IMG/VR virus record: IMGVR_UViG_3300012953_000099
Coordinates: 1-34,207 of that record
Direction: 5' to 3' (one strand)
Origin: a virus
Lineage: Duplodnaviria; Caudoviricetes
Length of the DNA: 34,207 bases
Shown here: in pieces, positions 24,737-31,817 of the stretch
Position numbering within the stretch: the stretch's first letter is position 1
How the letters are laid out: each line of letters opens with the position of its first letter
Translations under genes and position numbers: made by a program
The notes under the pieces: model-generated
Databases searched by the model: none
What the model saw: the letters and a program-made list of their open reading frames with translations, nothing else
Told to the model about the DNA's origin: nothing

Positions 24737-24949
24737 ATGAAAGAGTATGCATCAGTTGAAGGACATTCTAATCTCGCAAGAGATGAAGAATCTTCTGCAA
24801 TTGTAAATACAGATATTGAACAATGGAAACTTGCAAAACAAAGAAAATTGCGTTTTCAAAACCAAGCGAAAGAGATAAATAGTTTAAAGAGTGAAGTTGG
24901 TGAAATCAAAAACCTACTTAACGATATATTAGGAAAGTTAAATGGCTAA
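24737..24949 (+). CDS. Small conserved coiled-coil hypothetical protein
   Basis: 70 aa, VEGHSNL.RD..S.AIVNTD followed by heptads (EINSLKSEVGEIKNLL); usual neighbour of VrlC-like genes. Confidence 0.7.
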   Translation: MKEYASVEGHSNLARDEESSAIVNTDIEQWKLAKQRKLRFQNQAKEINSLKSEVGEIKNLLNDILGKLNG

Positions 24950-26420
24950 AACCGTAGATAATTACAGCACAATAAACGAATTCAGAGAAAAGTATAATGA
25001 ACTTGCCGTAGATGTGGGTGAGGTTTCAGGATTAAGACCTGCATTAGGAGAAAATCTTGTTGATGCCGTTAACGCAGTAGAAGATAAAGCATTCTATTTT
25101 GGAAAATATAGATATGTTGCAACTGCAGGACAACAAACATTCACAGGTGCAGATGCAAATGGAAATACTCTTAAATATAAAGGAAACAGAGTTCAAGTAT
25201 TTAAGAACGGAGCATTATTAGAAGAACAAAGTGATTGGCAGGTTGGTGGACTTGCAGGTGCTTTCTATTATAACATACAATTGATATCGGCGGCAAGCGC
25301 TAATGATTTAATACAAATCTATGCATACACAGGTTCTTTTGAAGGAACTGCTACATCAACTGCAATACTTTCATTCTTTACAGAAACATTACAGAACACA
25401 ATCTATAATACTAACTCAAATGGTGTTATACTTCAAGGAGATAATTCTTCTCCTACAACAACTCTACAAGGTGGATTTACTTTACAACTTGCAGGTAAAA
25501 CTTATGCAGAAGATGACATAACACTTGCAACAGGTAAAACATTAACTGCACCAACAGTAACAGATGGAACTGCATCTTTAACAAGTGGTTCATTATCAGG
25601 TGCAGTAAACGGAACATTCTCAGGCACAGTTCAAGCAGAACAATTAACGACTACAGATGATTTAACAGTAGGTGATGATGCAAGTATCGGTGGTGATTTA
25701 GGAGTCACTGGAACTGCAACAGTAGGCACTTTGGCATCAGGTGGTATAACAGGAACAACTGCAAGTTTTACAGGAAATGTAGACTTAGGAAGTGATGCAA
25801 GTGATACAGTATCAATCAATGGTGTTGTAGATACAAATATAATACCCAATACAGATAATACTAGAACATTAGGTTCTGCTTCAAAGAAATTTCAAAGTTT
25901 ACATGCAACAACTATTACTGCAACAACAATAAATGGTACCATAACTGGTGATGTAAAAGGTGATGTCATGAAAGATGACGGAACTAAAATCTTAGAAAAT
26001 TCAACAGGTGCTTTGACTGGTACTGTTTCTAGTGTTTCAAATCATTCAGCTTCAGGATTATCAGATATTAATTATACATCATCACCAGCTGCTGGGCAAG
26101 TCTTAGCATGGGATGCCTCAAACAATTATTGGGAACCTGTTAATCCAACAAATACAACAGACTCAGTATCAGAGGGTTCAAATAGTTTCTATTTTACAGA
26201 TGATAGGGTCAATGCAATAATTAATGCCGAAGCAGGTTTAGCCAAAACATATGCTACTAACACCTCAAACCCTTTGGATGGTGATATAAATATTAGTGTT
26301 AACACTTCAGAAGGAGTCAAAATTGATGGTGACAATGTGGTGATGGACAAAACAATAGTAAGCACAGCTCCTTCAGGAGTTGGGTCAACATCATCAGGTC
26401 ATTTATGGTTTGTAGTCTAA
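24942..26420 (+). CDS. Tail fibre / appendage protein
   Basis: 492 aa Thr/Gly/Ser-rich; IIPNTDNTRTLGSASKKF, GQVLAWD....WEP, TTDSVSEGSNSFYFTDDRV fibre motifs; ends STAPSGVGSTSSGHLWFVV. Confidence 0.75.
   Translation: MAKTVDNYSTINEFREKYNELAVDVGEVSGLRPALGENLVDAVNAVEDKAFYFGKYRYVATAGQQTFTGADANGNTLKYKGNRVQVFKNGALLEEQSDWQVGGLAGAFYYNIQLISAASANDLIQIYAYTGSFEGTATSTAILSFFTETLQNTIYNTNSNGVILQGDNSSPTTTLQGGFTLQLAGKTYAEDDITLATGKTLTAPTVTDGTASLTSGSLSGAVNGTFSGTVQAEQLTTTDDLTVGDDASIGGDLGVTGTATVGTLASGGITGTTASFTGNVDLGSDASDTVSINGVVDTNIIPNTDNTRTLGSASKKFQSLHATTITATTINGTITGDVKGDVMKDDGTKILENSTGALTGTVSSVSNHSASGLSDINYTSSPAAGQVLAWDASNNYWEPVNPTNTTDSVSEGSNSFYFTDDRVNAIINAEAGLAKTYATNTSNPLDGDINISVNTSEGVKIDGDNVVMDKTIVSTAPSGVGSTSSGHLWFVV
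26285..26292 (+). promoter_or_regulatory. Possible internal late promoter (TATAAATA) upstream of the repeat-protein pair
   Basis: Perfect consensus within the 3' part of 24942..26420, about 130 nt before the ATG at 26424; could be chance in AT-rich DNA. Confidence 0.35.
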
Positions 26421-26423
26421 ATT

Positions 26424-27815
26424 ATGTCAGAGAAAATTTATGTAAATACTGGTTCGACCTTTCAACAAGCGTTTAATGATAGGTCGCCTAGAAGTGCTCA
26501 ACAGCCGTATATAGCTAATGCTCAGACTCCCTATATAGCTAATTCACAAACACCCTTTACATATTCAAATAGACAACCTGCAAAGTATCAGAATCCAACT
26601 AGTGCTCAACAACCATATATAGCTAATGCACAACAGCCTTATCCGTATATAGCTAATGCAAGACAACCTTATATAGCTAGCGCACAACAACCCTATCCAT
26701 ATATTGCATCTGCTCAGAATCCTTATATTGCAAATGCTAGGCAACCTGCAAAATATCAGAGTCCATCTAGTTATCAAATACCTTACATTGCAAATTCGCA
26801 GACACCATATCCTGCTAATGCAAGACAACCTAGTAATGCACAAACACCTTATATTGCAAATTCACAGACACCATATCCTGCTAATGCAAGACAACCTGTA
26901 AATGCTCAACAACCAAGTAATGCACAAGCACCATATCCTGCAAATGCACAAACATCTGCTTACTATAGAAATCCATTTACATACAATGCAAACACACCTG
27001 CGTCTTCTCAAACTCCTGTGACATATGATGTTTGGGGTGGAGGAAATGCTCAAGCAACTTCACAATTAGAAACCACAACTGATGTATCTGCTCCTATGGC
27101 ACCATTTTCAGTAGGATTTAATTATACAAGTGTAGGTCAACCAGCTTCAATTAATTGGGGTCCAGGGTCAACTCACATAGCTACTAGTCCAAATTCTGCT
27201 TATGTAGGCACGAATGCATTAAGTCACATGTGGAATACACAACAACAAAATACTTTTAGTTATTCTTTTGGACAATGTTTCTGCCAATTCTTTATGGGTT
27301 ATGAAAGTAGTTCAAGTAAAGTTTACTATGGTTTTAGTTCTGGAAATAGTCAATTTCCTTCAACAGGTAAAGGTCAATCTCCCAATAGAATATACCTACC
27401 ATTAACTGAATTGAGTAATAATAACATTATTGATAGTTCTTGGAGTATATCAGTTAAATATACAGTTCAATCACAAAGTATTACCCAAGGTGGAACAGAT
27501 TCACAAAATCCAGCTAATCCAAACTATGGTTCAGGTGTAGCTGCTGGGACATATGTAAACCTATGGAATGGTTCTACTGTTCAAAGTGGTGGTTATGAAG
27601 AGTTTATGTGGTCAGCCGTATCATCATCTAATCCTGGAAATAGTGATGCAAGAGTTCAAGCAAGTGGTGTAGTATTTACAGTAAAGGCACATAAGACTGG
27701 TCAAACATCATACTATACTCATTACATTGTAGCACAACATGGAGCTGGTAGCGGTGGACCTTTTGGTGAAATATTCTGTAGGTCAGTATTCGGTAATAAC
27801 CATGCACCAGTATAA
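26424..27815 (+). CDS. Gln/Pro/Tyr repeat fibre protein A with C-terminal globular (putative receptor-binding) domain
   Basis: Residues 23-198 are 24 Pro-terminated units of 6/8/10 aa (mostly YIANAxQP); residues 199-463 are a non-repetitive Ser/Gly/aromatic-rich domain. Confidence 0.75.
   Translation: MSEKIYVNTGSTFQQAFNDRSPRSAQQPYIANAQTPYIANSQTPFTYSNRQPAKYQNPTSAQQPYIANAQQPYPYIANARQPYIASAQQPYPYIASAQNPYIANARQPAKYQSPSSYQIPYIANSQTPYPANARQPSNAQTPYIANSQTPYPANARQPVNAQQPSNAQAPYPANAQTSAYYRNPFTYNANTPASSQTPVTYDVWGGGNAQATSQLETTTDVSAPMAPFSVGFNYTSVGQPASINWGPGSTHIATSPNSAYVGTNALSHMWNTQQQNTFSYSFGQCFCQFFMGYESSSSKVYYGFSSGNSQFPSTGKGQSPNRIYLPLTELSNNNIIDSSWSISVKYTVQSQSITQGGTDSQNPANPNYGSGVAAGTYVNLWNGSTVQSGGYEEFMWSAVSSSNPGNSDARVQASGVVFTVKAHKTGQTSYYTHYIVAQHGAGSGGPFGEIFCRSVFGNNHAPV
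26490..27017 (+). repeat. Coding tandem repeat array (18/24/30-nt units)
   Basis: Recurrent CC(A/T)TATATAGCTAATGC / GCAAGACAACCT words encoding P-YIANA-RQP units. Confidence 0.85.
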
Positions 27816-27826
27816 GGAGATGAAAG

Positions 27827-28543
27827 ATGCCTACAGTTAATCAACCAGTAATCGTTCAACAACCTTATATTGCGAGTGGTCAATCACCTGTTATATATCA
27901 GGTGCCATCTACATACCAGGCAAGACAACCGTCTACATACAGGCATCCTTTTACATATCAGGTGCCATTTACATACCAGGCAAGACAACCTGGAACATAT
28001 GATAATAGACAGCCTTCTGAATATCAACACCCATTTACATATCAGGCAAGACAACCTGGAACTTATCAGGCAAGACAACCAGCAACATACAGGCATCCGG
28101 CAGACTATCAAACACCTTTTACATATTCACATAGACAACCAACAACATATGCAAGGCAAGGTCAAACACCATTCACATATAGTAATAGACAACCATTTAC
28201 ATATGAAAGACAAGGTCAAACTCCTTTCACATATCAGGCAAGAAGTCCGTTTACATACAGAAATCCAACAGACTATCAGACACCTTATATTGCAGATGCA
28301 AGGCAACCTGGAACATATTCTAATAGACAACCATCAACTTATCAGAATAGAAGTCCATTCACATATCAACTCTCAGTTCCAAGCACAAGACCAATAGGTC
28401 CTTTGGCAAAAGTAAAGCAGGTTTGGGTAAATGATTCTGGAACTTTAAGAAAGGCGAGTGAGTTATATGTTAATGATTCTGGAACGGCTAAAAAGATTCA
28501 TCAAACACAACCTACAGCACAATTAACCGAACCTAATACTTAG
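27827..28543 (+). CDS. Gln/Pro/Tyr repeat fibre protein B
   Basis: AAGGAG SD; residues 8-185 are 24 Pro-terminated units (mostly xTYxxRQP); C-terminus has two (W/Y)VNDSGT repeats. Confidence 0.75.
   Translation: MPTVNQPVIVQQPYIASGQSPVIYQVPSTYQARQPSTYRHPFTYQVPFTYQARQPGTYDNRQPSEYQHPFTYQARQPGTYQARQPATYRHPADYQTPFTYSHRQPTTYARQGQTPFTYSNRQPFTYERQGQTPFTYQARSPFTYRNPTDYQTPYIADARQPGTYSNRQPSTYQNRSPFTYQLSVPSTRPIGPLAKVKQVWVNDSGTLRKASELYVNDSGTAKKIHQTQPTAQLTEPNT
27848..28381 (+). repeat. Coding tandem repeat array (18/24/30-nt units)
   Basis: Recurrent ACATA(C/T)CAGGCAAGACAACC words encoding TYQARQP units. Confidence 0.85.
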
Positions 28544-28569: not shown

Positions 28570-28905
28570 ATGGCTATTATCGCAAACTTATATATTGACC
28601 AAGGAACCGACTTCACAATTACAGTAGATGTGACTGATGCAGCGGGAGATGTCCTTGTTTTAACTTCATATTCTGCACTTGCACAAATAAGAAAAACATA
28701 TAGTTCTTCTAGTGTTTCAGTAGCATTTACTACTTCGATATCAGCATCAAATGGGCAAGTCACATTAAGTTTAAATGACACACAAACAAAAGCTTTAGAA
28801 GCAGGTCGATATGTTTACGATTTAAATATTACAAGTCCTGGTGGAGTCACCACAAGAGTCGTTGAAGGACAGGCAGTAGTGACACCAGGAGTAAGTCGGA
28901 GTTAA
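28570..28905 (+). CDS. Small virion structural protein (Ig/BppU-N-like beta-sandwich)
   Basis: ANLYIDQGTDF, AQIRKTYSS, GRYVYDL, TRVVEG...VTPGV motifs common in T4-like marine phage tail regions. Confidence 0.75.
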   Translation: MAIIANLYIDQGTDFTITVDVTDAAGDVLVLTSYSALAQIRKTYSSSSVSVAFTTSISASNGQVTLSLNDTQTKALEAGRYVYDLNITSPGGVTTRVVEGQAVVTPGVSRS

Positions 28906-28907
28906 TT

Positions 28908-29150
28908 ATGTCGAACATTAAAGGAACAGTTTCAAGAGTTGCAGGTATCTCAGGTAGAGTTGGAGGCACAGGAAACATTCGTGCAAAACAAGTTCAAGTT
29001 GGTTCAGGTGGTCAAGCAGACTTAACCACAAAATCAATCAATGAACTATCAGATGTTAATGCAACAGAAACGGATGATGGACTTCTTTCATATGACCAAG
29101 CAACAGATAAATGGACAACAACCACCACTATTGACGGCGGAACATTTTAA
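28908..29150 (+). CDS. Small structural protein ending in DGGTF
   Basis: 80 aa; INELSDV....DDGLLSYD..TDKW fibre-type motif and C-terminal IDGGTF. Confidence 0.65.
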   Translation: MSNIKGTVSRVAGISGRVGGTGNIRAKQVQVGSGGQADLTTKSINELSDVNATETDDGLLSYDQATDKWTTTTTIDGGTF

Positions 29151-29165
29151 AAGTTTTAATATATT

Positions 29166-30029
29166 ATGGATGAATGGTCACCTTTGCGTGAAATCATTGT
29201 AGGAACACTTCAAGGTTTCAAAGAACACAATCACTATTCATCATATCATTCCTCAAATAAATTTATCAATACATTATATGATGAAGCAGAAGAGGGTCTA
29301 CAAACATTTCAAACACTATTAGAAAAAGAGGGTGTAATTGTCCATCGTCCTCGTGGTTTCTGTTATAATGTAAGAGATTGTGCAGTAGTATTAGGTGATA
29401 CTATTGTTGAGGGTTCTATGAGATATGAAGAAGAATATCTTTGGTTAGAATCTTTAAGACCAATATTCTTAGAAAGTGATTTAAATTATTTAATAGGTCC
29501 TAAACCCACATGGAAAAATGACGAACCCATATTTGATGGTGCAAATCTTTGTAAACTAGGAGATAGTGTTCTAATTGCAATTAATGAGACTGCAAATAAT
29601 AAAGGAAAAATGTGGTTAGAAAAAACTTTTTCAAATATAAACTTCAATTCAATAAATCTAAAAGAAGATGTATCTCATATAGATACAACTATAGTTCCTA
29701 TATCTTCTAATACTGTTTTATTAAACTCAAATAGATTAAACGAAGATACACTTCCATCTATATTGAATGATTGGAATAAAATATGGGTTAAAGAAGAAGA
29801 TTTAGTAGATGAAGCTAAAATGCTTGGATTTAAATATGGTGCAAGTAAGTGGATAGGTATGAATACTCTTTCTCTCAATGATAATACACTATTTATTAGT
29901 GAGGGGCAAGTAAAACTTATAGACATATTAGAGAGTAAAAACTTTAATTGTATACCTGTTCCTTTAAAGTATACCAGAGAACTTTGTGGTGGTTTACATT
30001 GTTGCACTTTGGACCTGGTCAGAGATTAG
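29166..30029 (+). CDS. Amidinotransferase-family enzyme (glycine/inosamine-phosphate amidinotransferase-like, pentein fold)
   Basis: EWSPLREIIVG N-terminus, RD motif, IFDGAN (Asp), SHIDTT (His), WIGMN.LS, C-terminal GGLHCCTLD (Cys): full Cys-His-Asp triad. Confidence 0.88.
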   Translation: MDEWSPLREIIVGTLQGFKEHNHYSSYHSSNKFINTLYDEAEEGLQTFQTLLEKEGVIVHRPRGFCYNVRDCAVVLGDTIVEGSMRYEEEYLWLESLRPIFLESDLNYLIGPKPTWKNDEPIFDGANLCKLGDSVLIAINETANNKGKMWLEKTFSNINFNSINLKEDVSHIDTTIVPISSNTVLLNSNRLNEDTLPSILNDWNKIWVKEEDLVDEAKMLGFKYGASKWIGMNTLSLNDNTLFISEGQVKLIDILESKNFNCIPVPLKYTRELCGGLHCCTLDLVRD

Positions 30030-30176: not shown

Positions 30177-31817
30177 ATGGCAACAGTAATTCAAATCAAA
30201 CGAAGCACAGGAGTATCCGCACCAGCAGTCTCAGACTTAGCTGAAGGCGAATTAGCTTATGTGCAGGATAGGTCGAATTCAGGTGCTGGTGCTAAACTAT
30301 ACATCGAATCAGTAGATTCTGATAACTCAACTCCATTAATCCAAGCGATTGGTGGTAAGTATTATACAGATATCTTAGGTGGTTCAGCTGCTACACCAGC
30401 CAACTTTAAAGTTGGTAATGGTTCAACAGCAGGTGCAAGTTTACAACTATTAGAAGACAGCGACAACGGAACAAATTTCGTTGGATTAAAAGCTGCTGAT
30501 ACAATAGGTTCATCAGTTACCTTTACACTTCCAGCTGCCGACGGTTCTGCAAACCAAGTTTTGGGAACAGACGGCTCAGGAACACTTTCGTTCTTATCAA
30601 CAACTTCTACCGTAGCAGGTGCAAGTGATACTAATATCACAACTCCAGCTGACGGTGCAATGTTAATATATGACACAGGAACATCGAAATGGATAGACAA
30701 TGTTATGTCCGGCGATGCTACTATGACAGATGGTGGTGTTTTAACAATCGCAAACGATGCCGTTGAACAGGCTATGATTGCAGATGACGCCGTTGGTGCA
30801 GACCAACTTGCGGCTTCAGCAGTTGTATTTGGTTCATTAGCAGGTGCGATGGTACAAACATCAGGCGAATCATTCTCAGACGATGATGTTTCACTTATGA
30901 CTTCAGCTGCAATCCAGGACAAAATCCAAGCAACTGTAACTTTAGAAGACTTAGATGTCGCTGGTGATTCAGGAACAGGTGCAGTCGATTTAGACACACA
31001 AAGTTTAACAATCGCTGGTACAGCAAATGAGATTGAAACTTCTGCAAGTGGACAAACTATAACAGTTGGTCTTCCTAACAATGTAACAGTCGCAAACAAC
31101 TTAACCGTTTCAGGAAACTTAATATCAGACGATATTACAACTGCAACTTTAACAACATCTGGTAACTTAACAGTCACAGGAAACTTGGCAGTTAACGGAA
31201 CTACAACTACAGTAAACTCAACAACAGTAAATATTGCTGACCCTGTATTTGAAATTGGTGACGATTCTTCAGATGACAACCTAGACAGAGGTATTAAATT
31301 TAAATACAACTCTGGTGGTGCAAAGATTGGTTTCTTCGGAATGGATGATACTGACGGTTCTTTTGTTGCTCTAACAAGTGCAACAGATAGTTCATCAGTA
31401 TTCTCTGGAACTGCAATGGCAGGTAAATTCGGCAACTTAACAGCTGCTGGTTTAGCAATGAGTGGAAGTATTTCTTCTTATGCAGGTTCAGCTCCAACAG
31501 ATGGTCAGTTATTAATAGGTGATACAGCTTCAGGTATTATGGATGCAGCTACACTTACTGCTGGTGATGGTATTGACATCACTAACGGTGCAGGCGCAAT
31601 TACAATTGCGGCTGAAGTGTCAAGTGCTTCCAACTTAGGTTCTGTAATCGTAGAAGCTGGAGAGGGTATGGATGTATCTTACTCTGGTGGAACTGCTACA
31701 GTAGCTGGTGAAGATGCAACTACAACCAATAAAGGTATTGCAAGTTTTGCTACAGCAAACTTTACAGTATCAAGTGGTGCAGTTTCTATCACAGGTATCG
31801 ATGGTGGTACATTTTAA
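30177..31817 (+). CDS. Tail fibre / appendage protein with MATVIQIKRS N-terminal domain
   Basis: 546 aa; IQIKRS....P....LAEGELAY N-terminus (Mtd-N/hyaluronidase-like), GNL.VNGTTTTVNST, ATTTNKGIASF, terminal IDGGTF; AGGAG SD. Confidence 0.8.
   Translation: MATVIQIKRSTGVSAPAVSDLAEGELAYVQDRSNSGAGAKLYIESVDSDNSTPLIQAIGGKYYTDILGGSAATPANFKVGNGSTAGASLQLLEDSDNGTNFVGLKAADTIGSSVTFTLPAADGSANQVLGTDGSGTLSFLSTTSTVAGASDTNITTPADGAMLIYDTGTSKWIDNVMSGDATMTDGGVLTIANDAVEQAMIADDAVGADQLAASAVVFGSLAGAMVQTSGESFSDDDVSLMTSAAIQDKIQATVTLEDLDVAGDSGTGAVDLDTQSLTIAGTANEIETSASGQTITVGLPNNVTVANNLTVSGNLISDDITTATLTTSGNLTVTGNLAVNGTTTTVNSTTVNIADPVFEIGDDSSDDNLDRGIKFKYNSGGAKIGFFGMDDTDGSFVALTSATDSSSVFSGTAMAGKFGNLTAAGLAMSGSISSYAGSAPTDGQLLIGDTASGIMDAATLTAGDGIDITNGAGAITIAAEVSSASNLGSVIVEAGEGMDVSYSGGTATVAGEDATTTNKGIASFATANFTVSSGAVSITGIDGGTF

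Follow-up and report, generated by a model that had tools for sequence, protein, structure and literature searches.

The window analysed here is the whole of the virus record IMGVR_UViG_3300012953_000099, 34,207 bases in length and with an estimated completeness of 19%. Profile matches to tail tube, baseplate hub and baseplate wedge genes place it in the tail region of a T4-like myophage, and it additionally contains fibre-like genes and the gene for a DUF4815 protein of 2229 aa. In a comparison with 50,697 deposited phages, the nearest counterparts of its gp6-like wedge protein (39-42% identity) belong to the Methylophilales phage Melnitz and the Pelagibacter phages Mosig and HTVC008M. The two genes of interest, A and B, lie on the plus strand, as do their immediate neighbours, between a gene for a fibre-like protein of 492 aa (24942..26420), whose C-terminal GHLWFVV is encoded at 26397-26417, and a conserved gene for an LtfC-like, L-shaped tail fibre assembly protein (28570..28905) that matches PHROG 3304 (E 8e-25), with the Pfam LtfC match staying below the cut-off. 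An LtfC-like gene comes after B in the inspected loci of the window's own subfamily (type 1, see below). The fibre cluster also contains, at 29166-30029, an amidinotransferase/dimethylargininase-like gene (weak NCBIfam match; PHROG 25854) that is present in some relatives (L046, L049) and missing from others. The fibre-region proteins encoded at 28908-29150 and 30177-31817 both terminate in IDGGTF, and like ends are seen in several neighbour genes of related loci.

Gene A (463 aa; 26424..27815, plus strand) codes for an N-terminal hairpin motif, an outgoing repeat arm and a C-terminal head. The hairpin motif, KIYVNTGSTFQ at residues 4-14 (26433..26465), was recognized by eye as one copy of a 14-aa motif, and a PHROG scan of a 25-aa piece containing it gave no match. 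The arm spans residues 23-198 (26490..27017) and consists of 24 units of 6, 8 or 10 aa in which all 28 prolines occupy even positions and 32/32 alanines and 22/23 aromatic residues odd ones. The head (approximately residues 202-463; 27027..27812) is without an assigned family and is variable among homologues; hints of Cementoin and keratin stayed below the cut-off and were dismissed as compositional. Gene B (238 aa; 27827..28543, plus strand) provides the returning repeat arm at residues 8-183 (27848..28375), the mirror complement of the A arm with A residue i facing B residue 203-i. Its C-terminal residues 194-227 (28406..28507) hold two copies of a [YW]VNDxGT hairpin motif 14 aa apart. This end matches PHROG 13729 (E 5.9e-7) across 34 of 190 profile positions, so that we claim a shared tandem 14-aa hairpin motif but not full membership in that family.

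A reading made from the letters of the window alone had proposed that unit i of A aligns with unit 25-i of B. When the arms are split at their prolines into 24 units each, with one boundary in A (between YPANAQTS and AYYRNP) placed by hand at the serine, this arrangement is borne out: unit lengths agree at 23 of the 24 positions, no other antiparallel offset exceeds 9 length matches, the best parallel offset gives 15/24, and none of 200,000 shuffles yielded more than 21. The sole mismatch, A1 (RSAQQP) against B24 (FTYQLSVP), vanishes when Ser183 of B is counted as a proline, which is also the register fixed by the conserved ends. The particular appositions described by the sequence-only reading are likewise present in the window: each of the 12 pairs of 8-mers sets a Y(I/P)A unit opposite an xTY unit, B has its two YIA units where A has its two FTY units, the AKY 6-mers of A are both found opposite xDY units of B, both 10-mer appositions exist, YPANARQP is opposed to FTYQARQP twice, and YIANSQTP is opposed to a GTY unit three times. 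Judged on the window alone, the two rules on unit types have chance probabilities of 1/66 and 1/45 and are thus only modestly unlikely; it is the homologues that render them decisive.

Viral loci were collected from scans (43, and 80 kept of 120) and supplemented with 80 of 241 metagenome loci, and protein searches gave 159 and 438 relatives as well as 254 representatives at 50% identity. The family comprises two subfamilies, type 1 (that of the window) and type 2, which differ in their end motifs. From the first 118 loci, 53 distinct A-B pairs were assigned, with seven loci containing two repeat genes escaping the patterns used. All counts given below are non-independent, as they include related loci and units duplicated inside arrays, and the unit tables take in only stretches between matched prolines. 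In cultured phages, BLAST searches, whose low-complexity filter may conceal matches, returned one weak match to B (E 7e-3) and none to a fusion of A and B, a type-2 A or the C-terminus of the upstream protein. Cellular genomes contributed a single locus (L199), on a 7.9-kb contig of a Verrucomicrobiales MAG; this contig is probably of viral origin and may be phage DNA that was binned in error, not a clue to the host. In the ESM Atlas, B matched only unnamed viral clusters under 0.9, and the A head matched nothing. Several irregular loci were noted. At L029 (4623-6726), gene A is frameshifted within its repeat array, probably through an assembly or sequencing error, and near-identical loci are intact. 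The near-identical records L007 and L008, as well as L033 and L035, differ solely in A, by a block of 20 aa, representing either an unmatched indel awaiting compensation or a repeat collapse during assembly. At L007, L010, L011, L016, L060 and L064, A and B are separated by an additional gene, small or unrelated (83-250 aa), which leaves the match between the arms undisturbed.

The compensatory code suggested by the sequence-only reading is supported by these homologues, but its proper level is that of residue pairs in one register and not a list of unit types. As judged from sequence comparisons, it is a residue-pair code operating in a single antiparallel register, A i with B 203-i. Within the window, proline stands opposite Gln or Arg in 50 of its 52 pairs, and an aromatic residue stands opposite Ala or Gly in 38 of 55; the proline pairs occupy one parity and the Tyr/Phe-Ala/Gly pairs the other, with a strict period of 2. 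A register that would place proline directly opposite proline was dropped, since mutual information and co-substitution both favour the register two residues away: mutual information peaks there at 1.53 bits (0.62-1.21 at other registers), and so does co-substitution between relatives, with an odds ratio of 6.2 versus 2.4-4.2 (15 comparisons, two of them duplicates). Covariation is present at two diagonal registers, too. The fifth residue of a unit illustrates the code: Ala5 is opposite Phe in 272/305 cases and Gly5 opposite an aromatic residue in 34/34, but Ser5 is opposite Phe in 0/23. YIANS units face GTY units because Ser5 faces a small residue. The Lys and Asp residues of the AKY/xDY pairs are directly opposite each other in the 203-i register.

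With a pair table trained on the other subfamily, the two arms of the window score 206 in their own register, in comparison with -1 for the runner-up among the A-B registers, 15 for A with A and 21 for B with B. The register is unique because the order of the 6-, 8-, 10- and 12-aa units is irregular. Across 98 arms, 3110 of 3154 Pro-Pro spacings are even, and a length of 3 occurs only three times. For 45 of the 53 pairs (one of them a tie), no antiparallel proline register does better than the one defined by the conserved anchors, with the ungapped register being lost in 8/53; the highest proline matching amounts to 70/72 over 525 residues. Three proteins (P0251, P0264 and P0250) share the end motifs but are built from other repeats (RRP, YHNR, longer units) and have a large insert in the middle; near their base proline is often opposite Gln or Arg; they possibly use a second dialect of the code.

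Covariation across homologous pairs had been named by the sequence-only reading as a check, with YIA-YIA or TY-TY appositions at random frequency counting against its proposal. This contrary outcome did not materialize: in 48-49 non-redundant loci or pairs, 426 of 434 in-register 8-mers are of opposite type (Tyr versus Ala), the remaining eight are of neither type, and Tyr-Tyr appositions are absent (0/434). An earlier set of 8-mers gave 283/288 opposite-type pairs, compared with a mean of 171 (sd 7, maximum 203) in 5000 within-locus shuffles. The rule that TY never faces TY holds for 8-mers but not for units of other lengths, as an aromatic residue stands at position 3 of both chains in 26/206 pairs of 6-mers and 102/109 pairs of 10-mers; in the true register, these position-3 aromatics are not opposite each other. 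The proposed Lys-Asp code is real in the lineage of the window, where locus L001 has acquired two further Lys-Asp sites, each through a double change, but it is not general: outside the window and its close kin, no Lys was found at this position, and Asp at the xDY position is opposite Thr more often than Lys (8 versus 4). Both polarities are present in most loci, and each chain is able to hold each type. In eight variants collinear with the window, both chains flip polarity together at A129-136, 151-158 and 171-178, and the site observations are complementary in 96 of 96 cases. A 12-mer replaces a pair of two 6-mers in both chains simultaneously in collinear variants.

The complementarity favours the cognate partner. 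For dereplicated type-1 pairs, proline matching amounts to 0.64 with the cognate and 0.38 with non-cognate partners (17 pairs: 13 strictly best, two ties, two lower), and for type-2 pairs the values are 0.95 and 0.42, the cognate partner being the best in 9/9. We trained a log-odds pair table on the nine type-2 pairs and applied it, ungapped, to 40 non-redundant type-1 B proteins; the cognate A was ranked first for 33 of them. The seven missed B proteins have short bulges, and their gapped scores exceed those of 9-10 sampled non-cognate partners. The lengths of the two arms are correlated (r 0.78, n=50, median difference 9), as measured by a crude arm rule that fails in several diverged A proteins. 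The order of the genes can be reversed, as at L033-L035, where B precedes A and complementarity is retained.

In many loci, a single gene combines an A-like start with a B-like end. These fusions are self-complementary in the A-B register from the joined ends outward; in 9 of 12, the self-pair scores are 111-212 versus 29-63 for ten lone A or B chains, and the other three self-pair no better than lone chains. As far as can be told from their sequences, the fusions imply an out-and-back topology with the variable domain between the two arms. On three contigs (L020/L083, L010/L093, L014/L102), a type-1 pair and a type-2 pair are separated by about 10 kb. The type-2 arms there match 40/42, 36/40 and 45/47 prolines with their own partner versus 14-18 with the other one; the bulged type-1 pairs on those contigs do not separate in the ungapped count. 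On two such contigs, the last 60 residues of the type-1 and type-2 A proteins are near-identical, and one head would therefore be displayed on two stalks. This suggests an exchange of heads between the type-1 and type-2 stalks of one phage.

A direct antiparallel pairing of A with B is, in our assessment, very likely. Since the spacing has a period of 2, the pattern is that of a beta-strand and not of polyproline or heptads, and the full model, which we consider probable, is a 1:1 two-stranded antiparallel beta-ribbon that would give a tail fibre a thin stalk at its tip. Chain A would leave the base and finish in the variable head, and the strand of B would return. The aromatic knobs would sit over small residues of the opposite strand. 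Residue pairs in an antiparallel sheet alternate between hydrogen-bonded and non-bonded sites, and prolines restricted to one class would turn the missing NH outward. Located at non-hydrogen-bonded sites, the Pro/Gln-Arg pairs would be costless in a two-stranded ribbon and would block the addition of a third strand. The code would determine register, length and partner choice, and the A-B stalk would hold the head out toward the host. An extended strand rises by 0.33 nm per residue; by residue count, the stalk is inferred to reach up to about 60 nm here and about 45-175 nm in relatives.

Structure predictions contributed little to this picture. AlphaFold2 modelling of the fusion L107 gave a mean pLDDT of 33.6 and no usable ribbon; its low-confidence strand pairs 20-36/414-430 and 45-55/395-405 both sum to the predicted register, a weak indication. 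The short protein P0008 (pLDDT 49.7) was modelled with four short C-terminal strands and no ribbon; its arms match over no more than about 30 residues, and it may have arisen by deletion or collapse. A fold search with the P0008 model found no PDB representatives with Z>=2 and nothing in BFVD at E<=0.001. For the complex of A(1-210) with B, the prediction score was 0.02 against a mark of 0.32, obtained with 14-row alignments under which the controls remained unfolded as well. A sequence search of the PDB revealed one match only (E 0.42) and no solved relative.

For the base of the stalk, the hairpin motifs offer a candidate attachment. In 11 proteins of PHROG 13729 detected with a strict motif pattern, three copies are present in nine and two copies in two. 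The two copies in B and the one in A suggest that one A together with one B makes up a three-part adaptor; these hairpins would thereby rebuild a three-hairpin adaptor capping the upstream fibre. As type-2 A proteins seem to carry three hairpin-like motifs themselves, this count of one plus two is limited to type 1. The 492-aa upstream protein has no PHROG, Pfam or NCBIfam match. At the inspected loci of both subfamilies, the gene upstream of A/B terminates in G[HD][LIM]W-xxx(x), and over all loci the G[HD][LIM]W motif was found at 161 ORF ends versus two internal occurrences. The 492-aa protein is thus likely the proximal fibre on which A and B dock. At the other end of the stalk, the A heads vary widely among homologues; of 22 proteins scanned, five have a Hint-like head (the A C-termini at L022, L024, L040, L046 and L115), with the domain following the arm after a Gly run and CF. 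Such a head may cleave itself or carry out a ligation at the tip.

Other explanations have to be weighed against the single ribbon. One of the two least favoured dispenses with physical pairing altogether and attributes the mirror order to an inverted duplication of DNA or to low-complexity chance. Both proteins are indeed of low complexity and draw on one small alphabet of units, and even non-cognate pairs match about 0.4 of their prolines. However, A and B are encoded on the same strand without an inverted repeat linking the arrays, for which a search recovered just eight short chance-like pairs; the mirror would therefore be maintained by selection at the protein level. The order of the units is reversed but the units themselves are not, different codons underlie identical peptides, and the match has been renewed over dozens of distinct unit orders. 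Cognate specificity, the ranking of held-out partners and the polarity flips refute this explanation at the sequence level, and we regard it as scarcely credible. As little can be said for an antiparallel pairing without beta-strands, in the form of polyproline II or of an intertwined stalk like that of antigen I/II, despite an arm composition of 14% Pro and 16% Gln and the interlocking of Tyr into Pro pockets described in the available text on the antigen I/II stalk (PMC7732690). The strict period of 2 and unit lengths of 6, 8, 10 and 12, rather than periods of 3 or 7, speak against it, as does the absence of a helical Ala-rich arm, and we view this arrangement as highly improbable.

A more serious competitor keeps the same antiparallel code but bundles the ribbons into an A2B2 assembly or a six-stranded A3B3 needle with the aromatic face buried between ribbons. 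Aromatic and Ala/Gly residues are confined to one parity, and aromatics on one face could equally mean packing on a second ribbon. Phage fibres are usually trimers. Covariation at two diagonal registers would fit a bundle, as would the precedent of the gp37 needle, a six-stranded antiparallel domain built from three chains according to the accessible part of its description (PMC9659904). Against a bundle stand the prolines every 2-10 residues on one parity, which would disfavour further edge strands, the putative three-hairpin adaptor, for which one A and one B would suffice, and knob-and-hole pairs that fit a ribbon covering itself; on balance, we hold bundling to be unlikely. It is quite improbable, in turn, that the ribbon is real but located elsewhere, in a baseplate whisker or a neck or head fibre, or that B acts like a chaperone and is removed after folding. 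Such a setting would agree with the lack of an assigned family for both the upstream protein and the head, and the Hint-like heads of some homologues may process themselves. Yet the position of A/B behind a gene ending in G[HD][LIM]W is conserved in both subfamilies, B belongs to the final chain in fusions, and the variable head is swapped between two stalks of one contig. We consequently retain the two-stranded ribbon at the fibre tip as our preferred reading.

The proposed ribbon shares traits with known structures but departs from each of them. In heterodimeric antiparallel coiled coils, knob-into-hole complementarity sets partner and orientation, and the placement of an aromatic residue over Gly or Ala is a known cross-strand preference of beta-hairpins; unlike in these, the pairing of A with B spans 135-525 residues and relies on an aperiodic barcode of lengths. 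The small phage proteins of PHROG 13729, of unknown function, have the 14-aa motif [YWFH][VI]NDxGTxR in common with A/B; they bear two or three N-terminal copies in one chain with another domain directly after, whereas in A/B the copies are divided (two in B, one in A) with a 180-residue arm inserted. According to the portion of the literature available to us, the antigen I/II stalk (SpaP, BspA) runs out and back with two different repeat regions and lifts a variable globular domain, as A/B would, raising it over 50 nm with Tyr interlocking between the arms (PMC7732690). That stalk, however, is described there as one chain in which Ala-rich heptads oppose PxxP repeats with a regular period, whereas A and B are usually two gene products that use one period-2 alphabet in irregular order, with either type in either arm. 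The combination of an Ala-rich heptad helix with a PxxP arm was not encountered in A/B; both arms have a period of 2.

The distal needle of T4 gp37 also consists of long antiparallel beta-strands that run out and back to a receptor-binding tip, but according to the passages accessible to us it is homotrimeric, binds seven irons through His residues and lacks Pro-punctuated repeats (PMC9659904, PMC6957217). Histidine makes up about 1% of the A/B arms and is absent from that of A, the homodimer registers score 15-21 versus 206 for A with B, and neither A nor the arm of B gave a match in PHROG, Pfam, NCBIfam or the PDB, whether to gp37 or otherwise. With gp38 of the T2/T6/S16 type, A/B would share the role of a separate tip protein; as far as its accessible description goes, gp38 is monomeric, docks through its N-terminus on a trimeric fibre and varies in its distal part (PMC12032242). 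It differs from A/B in having neither a stalk nor a second chain, and it has no sequence match to them; no family match to its attachment, beta-helix or polyglycine sandwich domains was found in A/B. An attachment to a trimeric fibre tip, as for gp38, is what gene order and the conserved terminal motifs lead us to infer for A and B. In the accessible text of a preprint presenting a tail-fibre atlas (10.1101/2024.10.28.620165), the terms 'antiparallel' and 'heterodimer' do not occur, and our literature searches, with incomplete coverage of partly accessible sources, returned no description of such a pair.

Collectively, we see about an even chance that A and B constitute a natural protein duplex, in which two chains read each other through transferable pairs of residues and a barcode of aperiodic lengths, thereby allowing specific ribbon rods of any length, two stalks in one phage without cross-pairing, and rules for orthogonal rods. 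As the pair table predicts partners across the subfamilies (33/40), the code is directly testable, and the table may yield design rules for addressable nanorods; the programmable filaments envisaged by the sequence-only reading would be a conceivable use. If true, a class of fibrous proteins would be added alongside coiled coils, collagen and beta-helices, namely a naked ribbon whose partner, register and length are legible from sequence. It would likewise explain how widespread uncultured T4-like phages extend their receptor-binding heads and swap them.
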